A DNA stretch of 64,000 nt from a virus (taxonomy: Duplodnaviria; Caudoviricetes): positions 1-64,000 of the IMG/VR virus record IMGVR_UViG_3300039156_000048. The stretch is one strand, 5' to 3'. A program made the translations under genes and the position numbers. The number at the start of each line of letters is the position of its first letter. Position 1 is the stretch's first letter. The notes under the pieces were generated by a model, which had not been told where the DNA came from, searched no databases, and saw only the letters and a list, made by a program, of their open reading frames with translations. Of the stretch, positions 4,406 to 47,793 are shown one piece after another.

Positions 4406-4632
4406 AAAATTCTCCTTTCTTTTTCATGAGATTTTTGGGTGAGGTCGTCTCGCCTGTAGACCTCGATGGTTTCCCCAGTGGGTCTGTTCCTTTGAGCAAA
4501 TTCAATGGCAGCATCATCAGATAGGAATGGAATGTCAAAGTAATTCTTCAACTTCCCGTCTTTGCCAATCGTGATGATGGTGTAGGGGAATAGGATCGGA
4601 GGACCTGATTGTTCTGCTTGTTCTGTCTTCAT
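4402..4632 (-). CDS. hypothetical protein
   Basis: RBS and overlap with neighbours. Confidence 0.55.
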   Translation of the reverse strand: MKTEQAEQSGPPILFPYTIITIGKDGKLKNYFDIPFLSDDAAIEFAQRNRPTGETIEVYRRDDLTQKSHEKERRIL

Positions 4633-5036
4633 TAAGTTCTCCTTCTGACATCGTATTCATATATGTCGACTTCCCCAATGGATGCCACATAGTAAAAATT
4701 TTCTTTGACTTTGATTGCGAAACTCACAACCTTGTTTAGCACAAAGGCCGCAATGACCTCGCTTCTTTTCTTGAAGTCGTATCCTTCCGTCGGAACATAT
4801 CCGGATGTCGTCCACATATGAACATCCCTACTTGGTTCATATTTGTGCCACAGCATGTCTGCCAAATATGAAATTGCGCTGGGATAACTCCCTAACTTCA
4901 CACCTGGCTCTGAATTGTCGAAGTCGCGCTGGTCATAGTTGTCATCGTTGCCATGTGTTTCACGGTACTCCCAAACGGTCTGTATGGTTCTCAGATTTGA
5001 TTTCCAGGCTTCCTCATACCATTTTTCTTTGTTCAT
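4632..5036 (-). CDS. hypothetical protein
   Basis: RBS, operon packing. Confidence 0.6.
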   Translation of the reverse strand: MNKEKWYEEAWKSNLRTIQTVWEYRETHGNDDNYDQRDFDNSEPGVKLGSYPSAISYLADMLWHKYEPSRDVHMWTTSGYVPTEGYDFKKRSEVIAAFVLNKVVSFAIKVKENFYYVASIGEVDIYEYDVRRRT

Positions 5037-5037
5037 G

Positions 5038-5592
5038 TTAGGTTTTTCTCCCTGATGAGGGCGTCAAGGATGCGGTCAAAAGCTTCGTTTTGCAGATGCA
5101 CTTGCTGGGGTTGACAAGAGCAGGTTCCACTCCGAGGTTGCACAGAATCAGAGCAGAATTCTCCAGAATACAACCAATTTCCGGATAAGGATTAGCGTTC
5201 TGGACAGCGGGGAGATACACCTCATGAAAATGGTTGAAGATGCGGTCAAAAACTTCCTTAGCAGTTAATCCACCAAGGACTTCATCATGGGTTGATTCTT
5301 CTTTGGTGAGGAGGCCCATGATTTCCAGTTCATCACAACTCCCACCATAGGAAGAATTCCCCTCGATAACGCTCACTGCCGGATGTGCTATGAGAGGATA
5401 GATCAGCGACCGCATTCCCTCACCACGAATCAGCAGAGTATAAGGGATGCAATAGGTGTCCAGCATTTTTGCGAGCCGGTCAATTTCCGGATAGTTTTCG
5501 CACATTTCCTTGGCAAAGAGATAATTCGCCTGTGATGCAGATGCAGGAAGTCCCGGAACAGTTATCCGATAGAAAGAGGTTCCAATTTTCAT
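5038..5592 (-). CDS. hypothetical protein
   Basis: AAGGAG RBS, 184 aa. Confidence 0.6.
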   Translation of the reverse strand: MKIGTSFYRITVPGLPASASQANYLFAKEMCENYPEIDRLAKMLDTYCIPYTLLIRGEGMRSLIYPLIAHPAVSVIEGNSSYGGSCDELEIMGLLTKEESTHDEVLGGLTAKEVFDRIFNHFHEVYLPAVQNANPYPEIGCILENSALILCNLGVEPALVNPSKCICKTKLLTASLTPSSGRKT

Positions 5593-5623
5593 AAAAATTC
5601 TCCTTTGTTTTGATCTTGTTTTC

Positions 5624-5798
5624 GTATGCGGAATTCCAGACAGCAGGTGAATGGTGGCGTTAGTGCTACACCTTTATAACCGGATGAGTATCACACTATT
5701 TTCTGCACCCATTGTGTGCCAGCGGTTACCATTGGTCACCATTCTTTGAAGACCGCCCAAGCTCTTGACAAGCCCCTTGCTGTCCAGAATTCCGCATA
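5624..5798. ncRNA. candidate structured RNA (nested long inverted repeats)
   Basis: GTATGCGGAATTC..GAATTCCGCATAC closing stem extends to about 25 bp; inner stems GAATGGTGGC/GTCACCATTC and TAACCG/CGGTTA. Confidence 0.4.
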
Positions 5799-5830
5799 CA
5801 AGTAATTGGTTCCGGATTGAAGTTCCTCCT

Positions 5831-5983
5831 TTACATCATGTAGTAACGGGTCTGAGGCTTCATATAAGCCCGTTCGGTTTTCCAGTTGTGAATTTTCCCG
5901 ATCATCCCTAATATGAATTCTCCAATAAGCAGGAGAAAGGCCAGAGATGCGATGACGGTCAGGATGATGATAAGATTCGCCAT
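5831..5983 (-). CDS. 50-aa single-TM peptide (not in ORF track)
   Basis: GAGGAG RBS; MANLIIILTVIASLAFLLLIGEFILG... Confidence 0.6.
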   Translation of the reverse strand: MANLIIILTVIASLAFLLLIGEFILGMIGKIHNWKTERAYMKPQTRYYMM

Positions 5984-5995
5984 GTTTTTCTCCTC

Positions 5996-6033
5996 ACTTA
6001 TGTAGATGGATTGAACTGTTGATTTTCGGACAC
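5996..6033 (-). promoter_or_regulatory. putative phage-specific promoter
   Basis: GTGTCCGAAAATC-N11-CCATCT-ACATAAGT; near-identical element at 11027. Confidence 0.55.
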
Positions 6034-6055
6034 TTTGACTTATTAAATTTCTGGA

Positions 6056-6337
6056 TTAAATTCCGAATAACTGAGAAGTCTTGGAGTAGGTGTCTTGTGT
6101 TACCTCATTTGCATAGATAAAACTCTTCAGTTCTCCTGCTCCGGTGTCCCAGTAGGAACATAGCAAAGGAACCAGATTTCCGTTATCATCTTTCTGGTTC
6201 TCCAGGACGTAATTAGCGCCATTAGGATATTCCTGTTGGAAGCGGCGCAGGGCAGATTCTTCATCAATCGCCGTACATTTTCCGTGATAGGTAGGAGTCC
6301 CGAATGGTCCACTTCCAGCTAAGACGTATGTTTTCAT
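6056..6337 (-). CDS. hypothetical protein
   Basis: GGAGG RBS. Confidence 0.6.
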   Translation of the reverse strand: MKTYVLAGSGPFGTPTYHGKCTAIDEESALRRFQQEYPNGANYVLENQKDDNGNLVPLLCSYWDTGAGELKSFIYANEVTQDTYSKTSQLFGI

Positions 6338-6370
6338 ATTTCCTCCACCGGGATAGTTCCCGGATAATTA

Positions 6371-6778
6371 TCAGAACTGGTTAACGCAGATATTTCCGAA
6401 GTCGAAAATTCCGCATTTCATGGATGCTAAAATTCCCGACCACTTTTCGCCATTCTCCAGGCGTTTCTCATAATGAAATTCCGCATCGCGGGAGATACAG
6501 TACAGCCATTCATCATAGGAGAGATGTTGTTGGAATTCCCCATGTTGACTAATAGTGTATCCTTTAAGTGTTTTGCGATAGGTGTTACCGTTGAGTTCAA
6601 CTTCGGAGCCGTTGAGTGCTGCCCGGGTATAATTGGCAATGACCAGGAGCCGGGACATTCCCTCTTTTGTCCTCTTCATGGTTGAATCCAAACTGAGGAT
6701 ATCACCTTGACTTTTAATCCTTTGGACATTAGGATAGACAGGGGAATGACCGGAAGGAGCCGACATTGTTACCGACAT
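6371..6778 (-). CDS. hypothetical protein
   Basis: ATG at 6778 after AAGGAG. Confidence 0.6.
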   Translation of the reverse strand: MSVTMSAPSGHSPVYPNVQRIKSQGDILSLDSTMKRTKEGMSRLLVIANYTRAALNGSEVELNGNTYRKTLKGYTISQHGEFQQHLSYDEWLYCISRDAEFHYEKRLENGEKWSGILASMKCGIFDFGNICVNQF

Positions 6779-6854
6779 GGTTTTGATCTCCTTTTTTGTA
6801 TTAAAAAAGACCACCTTTCGGCAGTCTATTTTTCGCAAGTTTATGAGGTGAATT

Positions 6855-7085
6855 GTGGCTATTAAAAAACAAAGCGTATGGGCAAGAGAATCAATGGATA
6901 GAATTTACTATCCGCCTGTTAAGATACGATTCAGAAAAAGGCCACCTAATAATGGAATTTATCCAATAATGGAAACAGCTGCACAAAATGCCGGTATTAC
7001 ATTGGCTGAATACGGCAGAATTGCGGTATTTGAGAAACTCAAAAGGGACGGGTATTTAGATTCAGAAGATGAATATATAAGATGA
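6855..7085 (+). CDS. possible ribbon-helix-helix DNA-binding protein
   Basis: lone plus-strand gene with GAGGTG RBS; strand-helix-helix pattern VKIRF...IMETAAQNAGITLAEYGRIAV. Confidence 0.5.
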   Translation: MAIKKQSVWARESMDRIYYPPVKIRFRKRPPNNGIYPIMETAAQNAGITLAEYGRIAVFEKLKRDGYLDSEDEYIR

Positions 7086-7102
7086 TTATCTAAGATCTTA
7101 AA

Positions 7103-7510
7103 TCACCGGCTACCATGATATCCGTTTAATGCCCGGAATATCTCTTGAGCCAATGGGCTTTCATACGGCACCTGGGTATGTGTCCACTCAAACTTCCAAG
7201 GTGAGGAATAGTCACCGGATTGGACAATAATGGGCCTGCGTCCAATTGTTTTCGAGTTGCAGCCCCAAACAGTCTTAACGTGTTTGATTGGCATTGGAGT
7301 ATCATAATTGATGCACTTGAATACGATGATATGTCTATCCTTGGGATTGGCGTCACCAAATCGGGCTGCTTTTGTGCCAAAGGACGCAAACGGAACACCT
7401 TCTGCATCTAGTCCATATGCACAGCCTGGGTGCAGGCTAAAGCCTTTCCATGGCTGGAAATGGGTTGATACACGGGCGATTCCGCGCATCTTGTTTAATT
7501 TACTGGGCAT
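7103..7510 (-). CDS. hypothetical protein
   Basis: GAGG RBS, 135 aa. Confidence 0.55.
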   Translation of the reverse strand: MPSKLNKMRGIARVSTHFQPWKGFSLHPGCAYGLDAEGVPFASFGTKAARFGDANPKDRHIIVFKCINYDTPMPIKHVKTVWGCNSKTIGRRPIIVQSGDYSSPWKFEWTHTQVPYESPLAQEIFRALNGYHGSR

Positions 7511-7665
7511 GATATATCCTCGACTTTCATATTAGGGTAACTTTAATACAACCTCAGCACCTTATCTTTTCAGAGTCCAGAATTAAATCTGACAATGCTT
7601 TTGGTTAATGGTTCTTTGCGTTTAATCGTTGTTGTTATTGTTAGCAAGCATTAGTTTATCCGCGC

Positions 7666-7785
7666 AGCAAACAAGCCAGATCGCTTTTATACTTCTATCC
7701 TTGACAGGATAAAAGGGTATAGCAAACAAGCCTTTCCAGTTTTTTGGCTGTATTCGTGTTTTTTAGTAACACAAACAAGCCTTTC
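7666..7785. repeat. three copies of CAAACAAGCC(TTTC)
   Basis: at 7668, 7723 and 7772. Confidence 0.7.
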
Positions 7786-7893
7786 ACCTTTTGGCTTTTG
7801 GCTTTTTCTATTCGCTTGCACTTTCCTTTTGACTGTTGACATTCATGCTGTATGCTATCGTTTATTGTTTGTCCGGTTTACTGCTTGCCCGGT

Positions 7894-8637
7894 TTACTTT
7901 TTTGTGCTTGCCTTTTCGATTTTAGCCTTTTCATCATTGACCTTTTTTGCTTGTGCGGTTCTTTCAGTATCTTTGTTTTTCAGTGCTTTTTCCATTGCAT
8001 CCGGGGAAACAGTATCTTGATTGCTTGCCTTGAGTTTCTTTTCTTTGAATACTGCATCAACGTCTTGCAATCCTGAAACAGCACGGGCAACGGCATGAAC
8101 AATACTTTTGTCTATGTTCGTTTCGTTGATTGCTTTTGGTGATAATCCATTCCAGTCTTTCAATGTATCCAGTGCGAACCGGAGTACTTGCTTGTTTACT
8201 GTTGCATTGTCAAGACTTGTATTAGAAAAGGCAATCAAGGCGGAAAAGGCATCGTTTAAGCTAGTCTTGTCTTGTTCATGCTTGATACTTTCAATGTATG
8301 CAAGTTTCATCTTCTCAAGCAGGACGTTATATGCTTTCAAATCATCTTTTTTCAAGATAGCACGGTATCCGATTGTAGCCTTTTTCCTTGAATTGATTGT
8401 CAATCCGCTTTCATCACTGAAAGCGACAACCGGACAAAAGGCATTGTTTGCAAGTGCAAGTGCAGGGTATTCGCTTTCAATGATTGCCTTTTTCCATGCT
8501 TTCATGATTGCATCATTCAACGCCTTTTGTGCATCCGCCTTTTGTTCTTCAGTTTCAGCACTGGTCAGGGAAAGTATTTCATCCGCAAAAGTGGTTCTGT
8601 ACGTTTCCTTGATTTTATTTGTTATTTCTTGTTTCAT
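7894..8637 (-). CDS. first gene of the leftward early transcript, Lys/Ala-rich helical protein
   Basis: ATG after AAAGGA; downstream of a sigma70 promoter. Confidence 0.65.
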   Translation of the reverse strand: MKQEITNKIKETYRTTFADEILSLTSAETEEQKADAQKALNDAIMKAWKKAIIESEYPALALANNAFCPVVAFSDESGLTINSRKKATIGYRAILKKDDLKAYNVLLEKMKLAYIESIKHEQDKTSLNDAFSALIAFSNTSLDNATVNKQVLRFALDTLKDWNGLSPKAINETNIDKSIVHAVARAVSGLQDVDAVFKEKKLKASNQDTVSPDAMEKALKNKDTERTAQAKKVNDEKAKIEKASTKK

Positions 8638-8742
8638 GTTGTTTCCTTTCATGCTATACAGCATGAATGTCAACAGTCATTAGGTCTTTGCTTGCTTTTC
8701 TCTTTTTTCTTTTGTCAATGTTCGTGACTTGATTGTTAGTCC

Positions 8743-8791
8743 CTTTCACTTTGTGTCCGGTTTGCCTTTTGTGACTTTCACTTTGTGTCCG
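8743..8791. repeat. 17-bp direct repeat x2 in early leader
   Basis: CTTTCACTTTGTGTCCG at 8743 and 8775. Confidence 0.85.
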
Positions 8792-8815
8792 TCAAGGCAT
8801 CAATCAGTCAATTAC

Positions 8816-8844
8816 AAGATACCATAGTCACCTATACATGTCAA
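8816..8844 (-). promoter_or_regulatory. sigma70/sigmaA early promoter
   Basis: TTGACA-17 nt-TATCTT with extended -10 TG and AT-rich upstream region. Confidence 0.7.
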
Positions 8845-9051
8845 GTATTTTAATCAAAAAACATTATAAAAACAATGTATATAATAATGTAATACTATTC
8901 ACTATATACAATGCTATGCGATACATAGTATTAATGTATAGTATGGATAAACTTTGAGTATAGAATGAGTAAACAAAGAATGACTTGCATAAACACTGCA
9001 TAAACAATGCATATCATGTATACCATGATATACCAAATATACCAAAGCCCC

Positions 9052-9428
9052 TGTGGATAACTTTACCGGCAGCCTGTGGATAACTATTTATTCCTGACAT
9101 TATAGTCAAAATGTTAGGCAGAATATGACAAAAAATGTGGATAACTTTTGCCTGGAGCCTGTGGATAACTTTTATGCAGTGATGTATAATGATTGATAGC
9201 AATTGAATTGTATACAATATATACATATGTTTATACATTGTTACAAAAAAGTAACAAATTCTTAACAATTTACGCAAAAATGTAACAAATTTGTAATAAA
9301 TAGCCTACTCCTATCTCATTATTACCTTGATTTCTCAATTTATCACCTTGATTTCACTATTTCCACCACACAAGGACCCGCTATAAGGCCATAAGAGCCA
9401 CTGATCAGCCCTATCTTGGTTATCCACA
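9052..9428. promoter_or_regulatory. cluster of five perfect DnaA boxes
   Basis: TGTGGATAA at 9052, 9075, 9136, 9160; TTATCCACA at 9420. Confidence 0.8.
9093..9118. other. dif-like palindrome, copy 1
   Basis: CCTGACATTA-tagtca-AAATGTTAGG. Confidence 0.55.
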
Positions 9429-9644
9429 GGGTATACAAGCGTCAACTGGGTATACATTTGAATAAATCTTGCATAAGCAACTGCCTCATCTCTCCCTTCA
9501 GCCCTCTCTCAGACGATTTACAGGTACACTAGTGTACTGACCCTTTACGCTGAAACCTTTTTCTTATACATAAGAATATACATTTAGTAGATCCCCTTGA
9601 AAAAGGGTCATGTTTAAGGTTGAATAGATAGTGGTATACTATAA

Positions 9645-9660
9645 AGTTTCACGTGAAACA
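9645..9660. promoter_or_regulatory. parS-like site (ParB/Spo0J)
   Basis: AGTTTCACGTGAAACA, 15/16 match to TGTTTCACGTGAAACA. Confidence 0.7.
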
Positions 9661-10055
9661 ATTTGGACTAAGTGAATGATATACCAAAGGTTAGAAGGAA
9701 CGCAAATAAATGGGTTTTCCATTTTAAGTGACGATAATCATTCTTAGGCTCTCGCCTGCCGTGTTGGGTTAGAATTTAGCCCATCCTATGAACCCAGCGT
9801 ACCCTTCAAGTTACAAATTCGATTAAATGAGAAAACTAACCGAGTGTACTTATAGAACCCCCGGCAAAGGGTGCAGAAACTGACCACAATTACGCTGCAT
9901 CTTATGTTGTTAAGTGCGGCTAATCGCTTGTTCGGAGACGAATGAGTTACTTGATATGTCACGGCTTGCAACCTGTTTAGCCTGATGGGGCTTGAGGAAA
10001 CATGGTGCTGGCCAAAATAATCCTTCTATTAGACGCGTGCGTGCGTATGCGCGCG

Positions 10056-10500
10056 TTTTATATATACTATATATAAGTATATTAACCAGTAAGATAGTAG
10101 TACTATATACTCTATTAAACTATATAGATAATTACTATATAGTTCCTGAGTACTATATAGATCTTTTTTATACTTAAATATAATAACTTATAAACTATAA
10201 CGGAGTATATATACCAGTTAGCTAACTAGTAGGATAGTAGGTATATATACTGCTTACTATATAAACGACTAACAAGTACTGTTCCTAATTAGTATATACG
10301 TCTTCTTTAAATTAAAATAAAGTATATAACCTATAGCTATATATATATAACCAGTTAGCTAACTAAGGCTTGTAATACAGTATATAGTTCTTAGGACTAT
10401 ATAGTCTTTTATTAAGTACTAAAAGAAAGAAATAGGGTAGTATATGTTACTCTTATATACCTAATAGGACTATAATCAGTAAGTTATCAGGTATATATAA
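10056..10500. repeat. very AT-rich TATA-repeat low-complexity tract
   Basis: repeated TATATA; palindrome AGTTAGCTAACT at 10216 and 10353. Confidence 0.7.
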
Positions 10501-10579
10501 TAGGGACAGGATTAACCTTAAGAAGCACGGCGAGGGGACCTTTCCGTATCGTTTTAATTTCTATGCTCTAATCCACTGA

Positions 10580-10951
10580 TTATAACTAATAGATTTTGAT
10601 GCTCCTCTTTTTACTAAGGCAAATACCTTACCCCTATATGTGCCGTGTCTTAAACGCTGATTATAAGTAGTCGATTTGGACCGTAGATCGAATCCTGGAA
10701 GGGTGGCTCCACCCCCGCAGCACGGAAGAGGAACCTTCCTCGCCGCGTCGAACAGCGTTATGCACATAATTATACATCGTGGTGTTTATCACTCATAATT
10801 TTATAGATTCATTTTAAGCTCCAATTCCATTAGTTATAACTAGTTGATTTGGAGCATCACTTTCCACTAAGGCAAATACCTTGCCTTAATATTTCAACTC
10901 TCTATCTCCTGATTATAAGTAGTCGATTTAGGGTAAGGATCGAATCCTGGA
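10580..10951. repeat. two copies of an about 120-bp block element (third copy at 58510)
   Basis: shared blocks TTATAACTA, ACTAAGGCAAATACCTT, CTGATTATAAGTAGTCGATTT, GATCGAATCCTGGA. Confidence 0.8.
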
Positions 10952-11026
10952 GAGGGGTGTCCCCGGAGAAGCGTGGAGAGGATCACCTGCATAAAATATA
11001 CATATACAAAAATAATATGCAAAAGG

Positions 11027-11065
11027 GTGTCCGAAAATCGACTCATTCGTCCATCTATAAGTATA
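11027..11065 (+). promoter_or_regulatory. putative phage-specific promoter
   Basis: GTGTCCGAAAATC-N11-CCATCT-ATAAGTATA upstream of the first rightward gene. Confidence 0.55.
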
Positions 11066-11118
11066 GAGGGGTTATGAGAGACATACCACCGCCTCAAAAA
11101 AATTAAGGGGAGAAAACA

Positions 11119-11481
11119 TTGGCTAACACAAAGGAATTACAGAAACGGATCAGGGAACTCAAGAAGAACTTCAAGGGGGCTGGGGATGCTTACAAGGCTT
11201 GGCAGCAGGCAGCGGAGACACAGGATATCCGGCGCAACAGCCTGTACAGCGCGTATCGGAACATCGCGGTAACGGCCTGCACGTCGGCTTATGAACTCAC
11301 GGAAGTGCTTGATCTGGTGGACGCGGAGCTGACTATGTCCAGGGTACAGGAAGCAGAGGTCAAGCCTGTGATGGAAGCGCCCCCGCAGTCCAGCGGATAT
11401 GTGACCGGATTCACGAAGACTCAGAAAGATGAGATTTATGAGATCGAGAAAGAAATAAAGAAGGAGAAAAACGCAGAGTGA
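11119..11481 (+). CDS. hypothetical coiled-coil protein
   Basis: TTG after AAGGGGAG. Confidence 0.6.
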   Translation: MANTKELQKRIRELKKNFKGAGDAYKAWQQAAETQDIRRNSLYSAYRNIAVTACTSAYELTEVLDLVDAELTMSRVQEAEVKPVMEAPPQSSGYVTGFTKTQKDEIYEIEKEIKKEKNAE

Positions 11482-11921
11482 AGTTTGTACTGAGCAATGA
11501 CATCAACAGTAGGCTGAGTACGGTCGCTGTGATGGCTAATGGAGAAAGGGCGGTTGCTATCTTCCCGACGGAACAGGCCCTGAAGGACTACGAAGAAGTC
11601 GTGGATATGATAGGGGAGAAAATGGATACCCCGGGGTTGACCTTCGATACTCTGGCAAGCGTCAAGAAGGACGCTGTATGGGAAGACAAGCACGGAGAGG
11701 CTATCCTGGGGTTAATTATTGATGATGTTGGCGGCTTCGTCAACGCTGCGCTCAAGCATCTGGGGATCGACCTCCCCGTCATCTACGCCATGGTGAAAGA
11801 CAACGGGAACTCTTTTGTCCTGGCTCCACCCAGCGAAGACGGCTTTACGATCCCATCACCCGACCAGGTAGCTGAGATTATTACCAAGTCTCAGGACGGC
11901 GTCCTGGTCGTCAAAGAATAA
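11478..11921 (+). CDS. hypothetical protein
   Basis: GTGA overlap, AAGGAG RBS. Confidence 0.6.
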   Translation: MKFVLSNDINSRLSTVAVMANGERAVAIFPTEQALKDYEEVVDMIGEKMDTPGLTFDTLASVKKDAVWEDKHGEAILGLIIDDVGGFVNAALKHLGIDLPVIYAMVKDNGNSFVLAPPSEDGFTIPSPDQVAEIITKSQDGVLVVKE

Positions 11922-11929
11922 GGGGAACT

Positions 11930-12460
11930 ATCTCTGACAAAGAGATTATAGCGGTCGAAGACGTTTCGGCGGAAGAGGAAAAGACCACCACGCAAACAGG
12001 CTCAAGCACCCACAAGATTTCATCCTGGGACTATCTGAGCCTCTCCGAACATAGAGTTGTCAAACAATTGATTCGCACTCGCAGTCTGGTCGATAAGTAT
12101 TATACGTCAGTACAATACGGATCCGGTAATGTCCTTGAAACATCAGGGGTCTTTACCTTCGACGAAGACATTTTGACAACCTACTTTGACCTAGACGCCT
12201 TAATAAGCGAGTGCGGACTGACTGAACTTGAGATGGATATCGTGACCTCTATGATGGATGGTTACACAGTCAGGGACATTGTGGAAGAACGGGATTACGC
12301 AGACGGAAGGGCTGTACTCAACAGACTGGATGATGCGGTGGAGAAGATTGCTTTCAGGAACAATGAGCGATGGGCTGAATCCATCGAGAAGGCGCACCAC
12401 CGGCGTTGCCAAAAAGTAATTGATAAAAGAAAAGAACAAAAGAGAAAAGATTTAATATAA
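11930..12460 (+). CDS. sigma region-4/LuxR-like HTH protein (start uncertain: ATC 11930 or TTG 12068)
   Basis: LTELEMDIVTSMMDGYTVRDIVEE..VLNRLDDAVEKIA HTH pattern; frame is open back to an RBS at 11920. Confidence 0.5.
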   Translation: MSDKEIIAVEDVSAEEEKTTTQTGSSTHKISSWDYLSLSEHRVVKQLIRTRSLVDKYYTSVQYGSGNVLETSGVFTFDEDILTTYFDLDALISECGLTELEMDIVTSMMDGYTVRDIVEERDYADGRAVLNRLDDAVEKIAFRNNERWAESIEKAHHRRCQKVIDKRKEQKRKDLI

Positions 12461-12577
12461 ACAATATATTAATCAAACAAATAAAGAATAAAAACAACAA
12501 ACAAAAAACAATTTTGAAACAAACCGTGGACTTTTTCAATACATCTCTCATAAGTATATAGGAAGGTCTTTAAAAAG

Positions 12578-13255
12578 ATGACAAAGATTTTTAGGTTGAA
12601 TCTCCCAGACGGAACGGTTGATGAAATTTCCTACGATGAGCAGACGGACAAAGCTGCCATTGCTGAGAAGTATCTTGCCGCATGGGGTGGCTACATTGAG
12701 CGCAACTGGCTCTCAAATGACCACGAGGACAAGATGTGCGGGGAGAACAGGGTCAAGCGTTTTATGGAAAGCATCTCTGCCTTTATTCTCATGGGGGATA
12801 CCAGCGACACAATCACCGAATGGGGTGAAAGAAAAACCAAACAATGTGAAGTTCTTATACCGATGGGGCAAGAGGGAGCTCTTTATGGCGTTCCTGGTGA
12901 TGTGATATCCCAAATCGAGACCGCTCCGCCAGCGTTTACGCAGAAGAAAATCATTGCGCGGCAGAAGCGCTTTCCTGAGCAAGGCTCGTTTTCGCGGATT
13001 GAAGCCTTTAAACGCGAAAATCCTCATGCGGTGTTCTCCTTTTACCATGTAGACACGGAAGGTTGTTTTACGGCAGGCGGTTCAAGGTACAGGATTTCGG
13101 ATGAGGTCAAGGAATATAAAGGCAAGAAGACAAAAAGCGGTCTGCGGTATGACATGGACAGGATCATCGTCGTGACGAAACCCAATGGTGAAAAGGTATT
13201 TTTGAATCAATGGGGATATGAAATCCCTCAAGGCTCTGTAACAGAAATAAAATAA
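12578..13255 (+). CDS. hypothetical protein
   Basis: 225-aa ORF, GGAAGG RBS, CCG-N23-ATAAGTATA upstream. Confidence 0.65.
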   Translation: MTKIFRLNLPDGTVDEISYDEQTDKAAIAEKYLAAWGGYIERNWLSNDHEDKMCGENRVKRFMESISAFILMGDTSDTITEWGERKTKQCEVLIPMGQEGALYGVPGDVISQIETAPPAFTQKKIIARQKRFPEQGSFSRIEAFKRENPHAVFSFYHVDTEGCFTAGGSRYRISDEVKEYKGKKTKSGLRYDMDRIIVVTKPNGEKVFLNQWGYEIPQGSVTEIK

Positions 13256-13267
13256 TATTTTAGGAGG

Positions 13268-13489
13268 ATGCCGCATATGGCAATCTATCTGAGAAACCCT
13301 GAAAACCTTCGTCCCTGGGGACATGCGGCAAGCCTTTATGCCAGTACTAAGCAAGAGATTATCGCCGCCGGTTCAACTGTCACAACCGTAAATGAGGGAA
13401 CAATCGTAGTCATTCCCGGCTCTGACTGTATCACCAAGCTTGGTGAAGTCCTTCTCCTTGACCCCGTGGACGGATGGGGCGAGATTTAA
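13268..13489 (+). CDS. hypothetical protein
   Basis: AGGAGG RBS (start may be 13277). Confidence 0.55.
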   Translation: MPHMAIYLRNPENLRPWGHAASLYASTKQEIIAAGSTVTTVNEGTIVVIPGSDCITKLGEVLLLDPVDGWGEI

Positions 13490-13502
13490 GGAGGAATGAC
13501 GA

Positions 13503-14771
13503 ATGAGATTTGATGTTGCCGCCTATAAGGTGGCGCTTAAGAAAGCGCAGGAACTGCTTGAAGGGCAGGATGGCGCGGGAGATATTGGCTTTACAGACCC
13601 GAATGGGAATATCGCGGGGGCTACTGTTGGAGCTGCCCTGGTTGAATTGGGGCTTAGTGTGGCAGGAGCGGTGGCTGATATTGAAAGTAACCATCTGATT
13701 GTTCCCACCGGGGAACGGCCTGCTACCGAGGAAGACTTATACAAAGGCTTACAGATTTTTGATTCGACAGAAAGCAAACCTTACTGGTGCACAACCCCCG
13801 GCGAAAAAGAGGTTGACACACTTGAGGTACTCAACGATGTCATTGTGGCTGGTTCTGTGGACGTTACTCTTAACGGGGTTACTGTCAACACGCAGCTTGC
13901 AGGAGACGTTCCCGCCTTTTACAGCCTGACCATAGACACGGCACCTACATCTGCCGGAGATGTTGTGGTTACCCTTGCGGGGGTTGACACTACAGTTGCG
14001 GTGCTTGCCGAAGATCCTGCGGCTCTCGTCGCGGATAAAATCAGGCTTGCTTTCGCGGGCAATATAGATTGGATTACTTTGGGTGAAGGGGAGACCATAG
14101 GGATTACCGCTGGTTCTCCGGGGCCATCTCCTTCAGGCGCTTATTCTTTTTCAGGCGGCACAACCGGAGCAGCCTCTACGCTTGGTGTTGTTCTTCTTGC
14201 CCCAGGCGTTCTGGCAGACACCATCCCCCAAATTGCTACTAAAATTAGGGACAACACCTACGAAGGCTGGACAACGAGTGGCGAAGGTGAGTTCGTTATT
14301 TTTACCAAGAATTCCATCGGGGCTTGCAGTGCTCCGGCATATACGGATGTTGATACCGGTGTTGCGGCGAGTTTTATCAGGACAAATGAGGGAGTTACAA
14401 CCGTATGGGCAACCTTGCCGGTTTTTACTCCGCCTGAGCTTGAGTATATTGGGGTCAACGAATCAAATGACGAATTTCTGTGCGATCTTCAACAGCAGCG
14501 GGAAGCAAAGGTTTCCATGCTGATGACGAATGCGGGGGCGAAAACTGTAGCGTTTACGGAATGGCCGATATCTGGTCGTTGTGAAGTTTTTCTTGAGATC
14601 ACAACGCTGGCTGCGCCGACTGTCACATGGAATTTCAGTGGCACTGTTCGCTGGGCTGGCGGCTCCGCTCCGGCAATAGAAGCTGGAAAGGTATACCGCA
14701 TCAGTACCTATACTAATGACGGCGGAACAACGTGGGATGCTTATTTGCTTGGGATTATTACGGTATCGTAA
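13503..14771 (+). CDS. putative virion appendage/fibre-like protein
   Basis: Gly/Thr/Ala-rich; nested repeated domain; C-terminal VRWAGGSAP...TNDGGTTW typical of phage fibre tips. Confidence 0.5.
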   Translation: MRFDVAAYKVALKKAQELLEGQDGAGDIGFTDPNGNIAGATVGAALVELGLSVAGAVADIESNHLIVPTGERPATEEDLYKGLQIFDSTESKPYWCTTPGEKEVDTLEVLNDVIVAGSVDVTLNGVTVNTQLAGDVPAFYSLTIDTAPTSAGDVVVTLAGVDTTVAVLAEDPAALVADKIRLAFAGNIDWITLGEGETIGITAGSPGPSPSGAYSFSGGTTGAASTLGVVLLAPGVLADTIPQIATKIRDNTYEGWTTSGEGEFVIFTKNSIGACSAPAYTDVDTGVAASFIRTNEGVTTVWATLPVFTPPELEYIGVNESNDEFLCDLQQQREAKVSMLMTNAGAKTVAFTEWPISGRCEVFLEITTLAAPTVTWNFSGTVRWAGGSAPAIEAGKVYRISTYTNDGGTTWDAYLLGIITVS

Positions 14772-15599: not shown

Positions 15600-16090
15600 G
15601 ACATTACGGCTCAAACATTGTTATCAGACCGGCACTGCCGGTAGGATATACACGGCACTTGAGGTCGTGTCATGCGTTGAAGTGTGTGCTGGGTCAGGAT
15701 CCAGAGACACATGAAGCATCCATGGGGTTGGCGGACAACCACAACCTGACTTAGGCACTTTAAATGCAGTGCTGACAGAAAACCGCAACTCAGATCTTAA
15801 CGGGCCTATTTTCTTTAAGAATCCTTTGACCTGCCGATGCGAGGTGAGAAGCGTTAGTAACTATCGTAAGATAAGAACCGAAGCGTGAGAGGCCAGCAAA
15901 CTTTCGGGGGCAAGGATCCGTATGTAAAACCATATGTTGGTCAGTCGGTTTGACTTTGTAGTGTACTCGTCAAAAAACATCGCGAAGTATTTTGGACGCA
16001 ACACCCAACCACCCGATCCCCAGTGACAACTGAACCATGCGGGATGACGACCTGTGTGTGAAAGTTGCCAGCAAGACGGGTGGTTGGATT
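15600..16090 (+). ncRNA. candidate large structured ncRNA
   Basis: about 500 nt with no credible ORF between phoH and tRNA; many hairpins including an 11-bp stem 16005-16015/16077-16087. Confidence 0.45.
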
Positions 16091-47676: not shown

Positions 47677-47793
47677 TTGGTTCTTAAGTAAGAATCAGGC
47701 ACCTGAGAGCCGCGCCCCTTGGCGAAAATTACACGACAGGAACGGGTTAGTAGGTTTATTCTCGACCGCCCGTAGTGCAAAAGAAGGTGTTTT

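Follow-up and report, generated by a model that had tools for sequence, protein, structure and literature searches.

The theta origins of plasmids and plasmid prophages (P1 oriR, pSC101, F, RK2) use DnaA boxes that are placed beside iterons. In T5-like phages, DnaA boxes are found in the untranslated first-step-transfer (injection-stop) region (bioRxiv 10.1101/866236), and phi29 carries host-type parS and is entrapped in spores in a Spo0J-dependent manner (PMC2731898). Extrachromosomal mycobacterial prophages have RNA-based origins together with parABS (PMC7157519), and PMC3245932 describes DnaA-box clusters (DBCs) of Bacillus subtilis whose function interlocks with that of Spo0J and Soj. Here we analysed a phage locus that is a variation on known themes, the parS of phi29 and the DnaA boxes of T5 and of plasmids. 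It lies at 8.9-9.7 kb of IMG/VR virus record IMGVR_UViG_3300039156_000048 (Duplodnaviria; Caudoviricetes), a linear record of 101,755 bp that is 64% complete; the stretch under study, referred to here as the window, is the first 64 kb (64,000 nucleotides) of this record. The locus is best read as part of the main non-coding control or origin region of the phage, with docking sites for two host chromosome proteins, DnaA and ParB. The papers searched contained nothing on this phage group; in them, phage DnaA-box clusters are discussed for T5, and host-type parS for phi29.

Five perfect DnaA boxes are present. On the + strand, TGTGGATAA starts at 9052, 9075, 9136 and 9160, and TTATCCACA starts at 9420. 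A preliminary description of the window had named exactly these five, and neither the rest of the window nor the rest of the 101,755-bp record contains another, so that all five fall within 377 bp (9052-9428). From the base composition of the record, about 0.9 perfect boxes would be expected on both strands of the whole record, and the calculated chance of finding five of them in 377 bp is below 1e-9. The figure of 0.5 boxes per 64 kb given earlier is correct for equal base frequencies. This concentration speaks in favour of a functional docking region. Four of the boxes form two pairs on the - strand: in pair A, perfect TTATCCACA occupies 9052-9060 and 9075-9083, with starts 23 bp apart, and pair B, its duplicate, consists of perfect boxes at 9136-9144 and 9160-9168 (24 bp start to start). 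The two pairs represent a tandem duplication of an 85-bp two-box unit (repeats D4 and D11), and the four co-oriented boxes have the extended word CCTGTGGATAAC in common. The fifth perfect box (9420-9428, + strand) is oriented opposite to the other four and forms a 13-bp inverted repeat with the box at 9052 (CCCTGTGGATAAC / GTTATCCACAGGG; I23). The near-consensus box at 8942-8950 (TTATCCATA, - strand, one mismatch), which had also been listed, does exist and is oriented like the four main boxes; alone it is not significant, and one-mismatch boxes as a class are not enriched (22 observed, 17.4 expected from shuffles). A box of relaxed consensus, TTATGCACA, which fits TTWTNCACA, lies at 10758-10766 on the + strand, also inside the gene-free region described below.

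The second host-type element is a parS-type site, AGTTTCACGTGAAACA, at 9645-9660, 220 bp from the fifth DnaA box. It agrees with the 16-bp parS consensus of Bacillota, TGTTNCACGTGAAACA, at 15 of 16 positions, and its 14-bp palindromic core is perfect; the parS-like site reported earlier at 9645 was thus confirmed. The site is unique in the 101,755-bp record, in which a match as good would be expected 0.005-0.009 times by calculation (about 2e-4 times for the gene-free region). Stretches of 22-25 nt that include the core match many Clostridia chromosomes at 96-100%. The core is the same sequence as the chromosomal parS of Clostridia, which supports the view that a host ParB reads it.

Both elements lie in a divergent, open reading frame (ORF)-free control region of about 2.45 kb (8674-11118), flanked by leftward genes that end at 8673 and by a rightward late/structural operon that starts at 11119. 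No credible ORF of at least 20 aa was found in it on either strand. Three properties of this region favour a role in control or replication: it is the largest gene-free region of the record, the coding strand and the GC skew both flip within it, and the four least stable 200-bp segments of the 101.7-kb record (10056, 10303, 8841 and 9164) are all located inside it. The skew had been proposed earlier as a check, and it does switch at this place. The least stable DNA of the record is found at 8841-8950, 9164-9300 and 10056-10500, so that AT-rich DNA of the kind expected of an oriC unwinding element is present and may unwind. One easily melted, AT-rich stretch (9180-9310) is situated between the four boxes and the fifth box. 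Its nearest-neighbour stability is -1.05 to -1.12 kcal/mol per step, compared to a record mean of -1.37, and it contains the palindrome TTGTTAC-A6-GTAACAA and GTAACAAA repeats.

The phage encodes much of what it would need to replicate from such a region, namely PolIII alpha, a Toprim-DnaB_C primase-helicase, SSB, a Rad52-like protein and a PD-(D/E)XK nuclease. No recognisable replication initiator was found in the record (64% of the genome). Both observations are in line with the use of a host initiator. Bac_DnaA, Bac_DnaA_C, ParB_N and ParA-type AAA_31 gave no match in the 101,755-bp record, from which about one third of the genome is missing, so their absence is not proven. The earlier statement that no dnaA, dnaN or parAB gene lies nearby can therefore be widened to the whole record for dnaA and parAB (dnaN was not searched as a family). 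Since the record contains no cognate phage genes, the reader of the boxes and of parS is presumably a host protein. Taken from the sequence, the phage probably recruits host DnaA and ParB onto its own DNA.

We tentatively favour the reading, without holding it with confidence, that 8.9-9.7 kb is a host-DnaA-assisted origin and control hub whose parS loads host ParB. Host DnaA would occupy the five high-affinity boxes, that is, the two duplicated pairs and the inverted box 260 bp off, which bracket easily melted DNA. Bound DnaA would then help to mark or open the region, so that the helicase-primase, SSB and PolIII alpha of the phage could start replication, and phage replication would thereby be tied to the DnaA state of the host. 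A phage regulator bound to a palindrome between the box pairs would keep the region closed in the lysogen. Host ParB (Spo0J) would load on the single parS and would position or condense the replicating or unintegrated genome as it does the origin-proximal chromosome. The sites with their statistics and position, the lack of cognate phage genes in the record and the box clusters at the same genomic position in three distant relatives are observed; that DnaA and ParB bind, that the region acts as an origin and that the regulator gates it are steps that we infer. What the evidence shows is a docking region for host factors, and it cannot tell the uses of such a region apart.

With P1 oriR-type origins the locus has in common that boxes flank an AT-rich stretch, that short direct repeats are present, and that both belong to mobile elements. 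It differs from them in that no adjacent Rep gene was recognised, only two 21-bp repeats are present, and the phage has its own helicase-primase and polymerase. The two repeats are in tandem at 9319-9360 (+ strand; D16) and are 86% identical; they are iteron-like. An iteron array would comprise at least three phased iterons of 17-22 bp, and what was found here are these two repeats plus three TATACCA words. The latter (9019-9045, + strand) are spaced by 10 and 9 bp, adjoin the first DnaA box and are a possible binding array for a second factor. Six of the 14 TATACCA copies of the record are located in the gene-free region, and 12 of the 20 copies of the heptamer ATGTATA within 8.8-11.0 kb. ATGTATA, TATACCA and the 21-bp repeats may be candidate sites for other factors. 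A novel Rep-type initiator may also be among the flanking ORFs: the five largest on each side (4632-8673 and 11119-14771) gave no significant match in Pfam or PHROG, only sub-threshold ones (COE1_DBD with 17.2 bits at a cut-off of 27; a PHROG sigma factor with E = 0.0055), and for the adjacent 259-aa protein Pfam, PHROG and Atlas provided no functional lead.

The palindrome to which a phage regulator might bind, CTAACATTT-TGACTA-TAATGTCAG, lies at 9094-9117 (- strand) between box pairs A and B, and had been described before as a dif-like site. This identity was rejected: no stretch there reaches the cut-off of 10/28 mismatches to the dif of B. subtilis or E. coli, and the best dif matches in the record, with 9-10/28 mismatches, lie elsewhere. 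Copy number also rules out dif, since the palindrome belongs to a family of seven copies in the record (9094, 44546, 49303, 51663, 72622, 89372 and 99273), while dif occurs as a single copy per replicon. The family consensus is CTAACATTW-N6-TAATGTCAG, and the copy at 9094-9117, with zero mismatches, is the best of the seven. This palindrome is a probable candidate operator for a phage regulator, as its sequence and distribution suggest. A similar case is that of the SPBRE repeats of SPbeta, which are reportedly bound by the master repressor MrpR/YopR. In both cases a large temperate phage of the SPbeta type has palindromes dispersed over its intergenic regions; the palindrome sequence found here is unrelated to SPBRE as far as compared. 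Of the chromosome-like set of host signals claimed in the preliminary description, the boxes and parS are real, exceed chance and lie in a phage, but dif had to be given up, and the locus lacks the architecture of an oriC (see below).

To place the locus among related phages, we used TerL, which is 25-31% identical to that of Clostridium phage c-st and of the SPbeta group; c-st provides the closest match among cultured phages. The bacterial genomes in which related TerL genes occur belong, with few exceptions, to Clostridia of the gut or rumen. ENA and Logan contain TerL relatives that are 63-98% identical (P0001-P0006), and the relatives screened for boxes and parS are distant (TerL 44-57%), in the form of 174 TerL-centred loci and 24 whole records. 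A metagenome scan yielded nothing nearer than 57% TerL identity, searches of IMG/VR with single proteins yielded no close relatives, and phage records contained no DNA homologue of the gene-free region. Three of the distant relatives (G413, G416 and G422; TerL 46-49% identical) carry DnaA-box clusters, and this recurrence supports the reading that we favour. G413 has six perfect boxes and one near box, which lie about 15 kb upstream of TerL in a divergent region of 1.1 kb that is free of genes, while G416 and G422 have three tandem boxes each, about 8-9 kb upstream of TerL. The flanks of these boxes resemble CCTGTGGATAAC, and the regions as such do not align. In the sequence of G416, which was inspected, the boxes belong to a long stretch without genes, and after them come a purine tract and an AT-rich repeat array like that at 10060-10500 of the window. 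The tract consists of purines (GA) throughout, is about 115 nt long (5160-5275 of L226, the locus of G416) and comes immediately after the three boxes; it is a possible R-loop or triplex-forming element, and the look-alike AT-rich array lies at 5790-6160. As far as these sequences go, a DnaA-box cluster at an equivalent position recurs in the lineage but is optional.

The composite of boxes and parS was found in none of ten cultured phages (c-st, SPbeta, E3, MT835469, TR-TP2, LC76P1, phi3T, Goe14, Tsamsa and Perkons). A tandem box pair is present in c-st only: two perfect boxes stand head to tail at 11589-11606 of NC_007581.1, at the start of CST015. SPbeta has no perfect DnaA box. When LC76P1, phi3T, Goe14, Tsamsa and Perkons were scanned for parS, a parS-type palindrome was detected in Perkons only.

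Observations on relatives, gene order, promoters and box architecture weigh against a DnaA-assisted origin at this locus. No box cluster was detected in the other relatives, including seven of the eight that are at least 90% complete. parS occurs in 0/24 whole records of relatives, where the sole match with two mismatches is at the level of the control patterns, and it is also absent from the 174 TerL-centred loci; it appears to be specific to this phage or its close kin. The same motif set in related phages, which the preliminary description had named as a check, was thus found for the boxes in three distant relatives, and for parS in none. As most relatives lack the cluster and none of the 24 carries parS, the sites are dispensable for this phage family. 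Moreover, the replication genes of the record are located at least 55 kb from the DnaA-box locus. Sigma-70-like hexamers overlap the boxes at 9075 (9077-9106) and 9160 (9162-9190), but promoter-like matches in the region are not above chance (11 compared to 11.6 in shuffles), and the overlap of box and promoter is not conserved in G413 and G416.

The architecture of the boxes belongs to the same group of observations. A criterion for oriC quoted in PMC7561715 is the presence of at least three DnaA boxes with a mean spacing below 100 bp, and here four perfect boxes are found in 117 bp and five in 377 bp. The basal unwinding system (PMC8287927) consists of tandem boxes at most 3 bp apart, a GC cluster and at least three DnaA-trios within 16 bp. 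The gaps inside the present box pairs, however, are 14-15 bp long. A GC cluster follows the boxes at 9052 and 9420, but without a run of three or more NTN triplets. The box at 9136 is followed by five NTN triplets, of which only two fit the trio consensus, and NTN runs of at least three occur at 36% of random positions in the region. Contrary to the orientation rule of oriC, the four boxes and the fifth box all point away from the intervening AT-rich stretch. Nor is the rpmH-dnaA-dnaN context found, in so far as neither Bac_DnaA nor Bac_DnaA_C has a match in the 101.7-kb record (the restriction on dnaN given above applies). Like a bacterial oriC with basal unwinding (PMC8287927, PMC7561715), the locus has a DnaA-box cluster by AT-rich, unstable DNA with parS nearby; unlike it, this is a phage locus that lacks the dnaA/dnaN context, a close tandem pair with GC cluster and DnaA-trios, and homology to host origins. 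Its several consensus boxes, in non-coding DNA and away from dnaA, correspond to what defines a box cluster outside oriC.

Descent from a host oriC was considered and rejected. When 8850-10060 was compared with 399 Clostridia genomes, 85 of them gave matches of only 21-72 nt (about 75-100% identity), which were at motif level or of low complexity and included the parS core and the box pairs; none was extended. Five genomes that carry related prophages showed no extended homology either.

We also asked how common such sites are in other viral contigs. In IMG/VR, at least 118 contigs have two perfect boxes 14-15 bp apart, and 57 of these, among the matches listed, have at least four perfect boxes per 600 bp, at a G+C content that ranges from 18% to 66%. 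DnaA is encoded by none of the 50 box-cluster records checked (0/50). DnaA-box clusters are therefore common in dnaA-free IMG/VR contigs. Genes near the clusters include those for T7-type terminase, VapE-type primase/helicase and exonuclease: L152 has eight perfect boxes at 5030-5209, directly after a VapE-type primase/helicase gene, and L188 has nine at 6874-7252, arranged after a T7-type terminase gene as three triplets with 11-12-bp spacing. In L186, 23 perfect boxes are packed into 480 bp (12862-13339). At least 119 viral contigs bear parS, and among the matches listed 0/119 parS loci are accompanied within 1.5 kb by at least two perfect boxes. L191, an unrelated 41.9-kb IMG/VR record, has about ten DnaA boxes (nine perfect) and three parS-type palindromes (GTTCCACGTGGAAC at 11952, 11976 and 12298) in a gene-free stretch of about 1.2 kb (11180-12320). 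The ORFs next to it have no Pfam match, and the record contains no dnaA. A further contig, the 13.4-kb phage-like L128, has a direct terminal repeat and three tandem boxes at 181-213, with 27 nt in common with the boxes of L226; a perfect parS lies there inside a 688-aa ORF (12364).

The pair formed by the present SPbeta/c-st-like Clostridia phage and the unrelated L191 raises the possibility, which we regard as rather unlikely, of an 'origin-address' module: a box cluster plus parS in a gene-free region, without cognate genes, that would make the host treat the phage as origin-proximal chromosome and that would have been gained independently in unrelated phages. Such a module would recruit ParB and SMC and bring the genome to the pole or into the forespore, with DnaA-ATP and Soj setting the time of initiation.

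There is some chance, though not a large one, that the boxes are operators of a DnaA-sensing transcriptional switch and not an origin. DnaA would then sit over the -35s of two duplicated rightward promoters (9077-9106 and 9162-9190) and the phage regulator over the first -10. In each duplicated unit, a box coincides with a -35-like hexamer, which is followed at 17-18 bp by TATAGT or TATAAT, and the palindrome overlaps the first -10; the promoter counts and the comparison with G413 and G416 given above count against this explanation too. The switch would tune the late operon or a non-coding RNA region that extends to a terminator at 10056, and would couple lysis-lysogeny or induction to the replication state of the host. 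A candidate structured non-coding RNA of about 370 nt was found at 9690-10056 (+ strand), ending in a strong intrinsic terminator (10035-10056) that is followed by a T run. A strong terminator without an upstream ORF implies a non-coding transcript, and the fold z-score of 9690-10060 against shuffles is -4.0 on the + strand compared to -2.8 on the - strand. This segment has no ORF and no homologue among the fetched loci, and the lack of a homologue or of covariation speaks against the RNA. A search of 8.6-11.0 kb with Rfam gave nothing at gathering thresholds and only noise at E values up to 10. An extended -10, TGgTATACT (9632-9640), would put a transcription start on parS, and ParB bound there, where the structured RNA is predicted to start, would act as a second, operator-like input. 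DnaA is established as a transcription factor at box clusters of B. subtilis (PMC3245932, PMC4447404), and the sporadic occurrence of the cluster among relatives fits an optional regulatory add-on. In having a non-coding region with a candidate structured RNA by a partition site, in a temperate phage, the locus resembles the extrachromosomal mycobacterial prophages described in PMC7157519. Those prophages have their own ParAB and are extrachromosomal, while the present phage has an integrase and no par genes in the record.

That the boxes serve as a titration decoy seems unlikely. The amplified phage genome would bring hundreds of boxes, plus parS, which would soak up host DnaA and ParB; new rounds of host initiation would be shut off and segregation disturbed, to the benefit of the phage. 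All five boxes are perfect, high-affinity consensus sequences, and the record has no cognate phage genes. Box clusters of B. subtilis outside oriC repress initiation in a dose-dependent way and act with Spo0J/Soj (PMC3245932). The likeness to these DBCs and to datA of E. coli lies in the presence of several consensus boxes in DNA that is non-coding and has no dnaA. The difference is that the DBCs and datA belong to chromosomes and exert their effect through dosage relative to oriC, whereas the present boxes are on a mobile genome whose copy number shifts by orders of magnitude. Other viral contigs have arrays beyond the needs of an origin, such as the 23 boxes of L186 and the three triplets of L188. 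Five boxes, however, are a modest number, and a function in cis is suggested by their position within a control region, where a phage operator is interspersed among them. The cluster is also not conserved in most relatives, and taking Spo0J away from Soj would be expected to stimulate DnaA and not to inhibit it (PMC3245932).

It is quite improbable that the locus serves segregation or spore entrapment, as proposed in the preliminary description. The single parS, aided by boxes that mimic an origin, would let host ParABS and SMC carry the unintegrated genome into daughter cells or forespores. In favour of this, the only parS of the record is near-perfect, the endolysin (domains Amidase_2, SpoIID, SH3 and GW) includes a SpoIID domain, and the hosts of relatives are Clostridia. 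In addition, the closest TerL among cultured phages is that of c-st, which is a plasmid prophage. phi29 is a precedent for the use of host Spo0J together with parS (PMC2731898); it too has a chromosomal-type parS on a phage without a ParB gene, with host ParB as the presumed reader. It differs in being a small virulent phage with five parS and with Spo0A boxes (TGTCGAA) at early promoters, while the present one is a large integrating phage with one parS and DnaA boxes alongside. This second hallmark of phi29 is missing: 8600-11200 contains no Spo0A box (TGNCGAA), compared to 2.1 expected from the density in the record. With parS found in none of the 24 records of relatives, conservation does not help this explanation either. 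Nor does the phage need episomal maintenance, which had also been proposed: it has an integrase and a tRNA-Thr attP, and some of its relatives have been classified as proviruses. Of the two tyrosine recombinases of the record, one (the integrase) adjoins the tRNA-Thr fragment that constitutes attP; the second protein of this family is encoded at 79105-80055 of the record. The tRNA half of attP is identical in at least 120 genomes, mostly Clostridia; these candidate hosts include many Christensenellales, the described members of which, to our knowledge, do not sporulate. An attB beside a host origin was looked for and not found: the surroundings (up to 8 kb) of the matching tRNA-Thr in 120 genomes contained neither a box cluster nor parS.

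Only a very slight chance is left for a leading-end element like that of T5, in which the boxes would tether or pause the entering DNA at membrane-bound DnaA, or would mark a packaging or terminal region. Eight DnaA boxes are conserved in the untranslated first-step-transfer region of T5-like phages (bioRxiv 10.1101/866236), and both there and here a cluster of consensus boxes is located in a large non-coding region, rich in repeats and palindromes, away from the replication genes. The present region is just upstream of late/packaging genes, and some IMG/VR clusters are near contig ends or after a T7-type terminase gene. The excess at contig ends is slight, though (11 of 41 full-length contigs compared to about 7 expected, among the matches listed), and the T5 model itself is only a proposal; the function is putative in both cases. 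In T5, moreover, the pairs are 3 bp apart within conserved inverted repeats that are kept across the family, whereas here they are 14-15 bp apart, sporadic among relatives, in a phage of Bacillota, and accompanied by parS.

Finally, an artefact, either a chimeric assembly with a host oriC or a chance or neutral cluster of motifs, is hardly credible: the contig is from an uncultured source and incomplete (64%), but contamination with a host oriC, which the preliminary description had named as a way to be refuted, is very unlikely because only short and no extended matches occur in 399 Clostridia genomes, the cluster encloses a perfect copy of the phage-specific palindrome and is flanked left and right by phage genes, with structural genes further right, and the absence of dnaA from the record, the clusters at the same position in three relatives and the probability of five boxes by chance argue against it as well.

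Other features of the region and of the record were noted. At 10060-10500, degenerate repeats of 105-140 bp rich in ACTATATA (D1, D3, D5 and D7) form an AT-rich array, in which DNA stability falls to its minimum for the whole record. The array may contain promoters, unwind, or serve in packaging. It is followed at 10567-10892 by a duplicated element whose hairpin reads TAAGG-N6-CCTTA (repeat families D2 and D6). Rfam matches above the gathering score were obtained for a drum RNA next to tRNA-Thr (15672-15790) and for an RT-18 RNA (47713-47786). Genes for ribonucleotide reductase, RNA ligase and RtcB are present in the record as well.

The locus is compact (about 1.2 kb). In annotation, such sites could be mistaken for contamination by a host oriC, or for a chromosomal origin in metagenome bins. 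Since box clusters are frequent in dnaA-free viral contigs, the use of the host initiator by phages becomes a general question. If host DnaA and ParB do load at this locus, a large temperate gut phage would couple both its replication and its cellular positioning to the initiation and segregation machinery of its host while encoding neither protein. This would be a route of host takeover, or of sensing the state of the host, on which little work exists apart from phi29 (parS) and the proposal for T5 (DnaA boxes).

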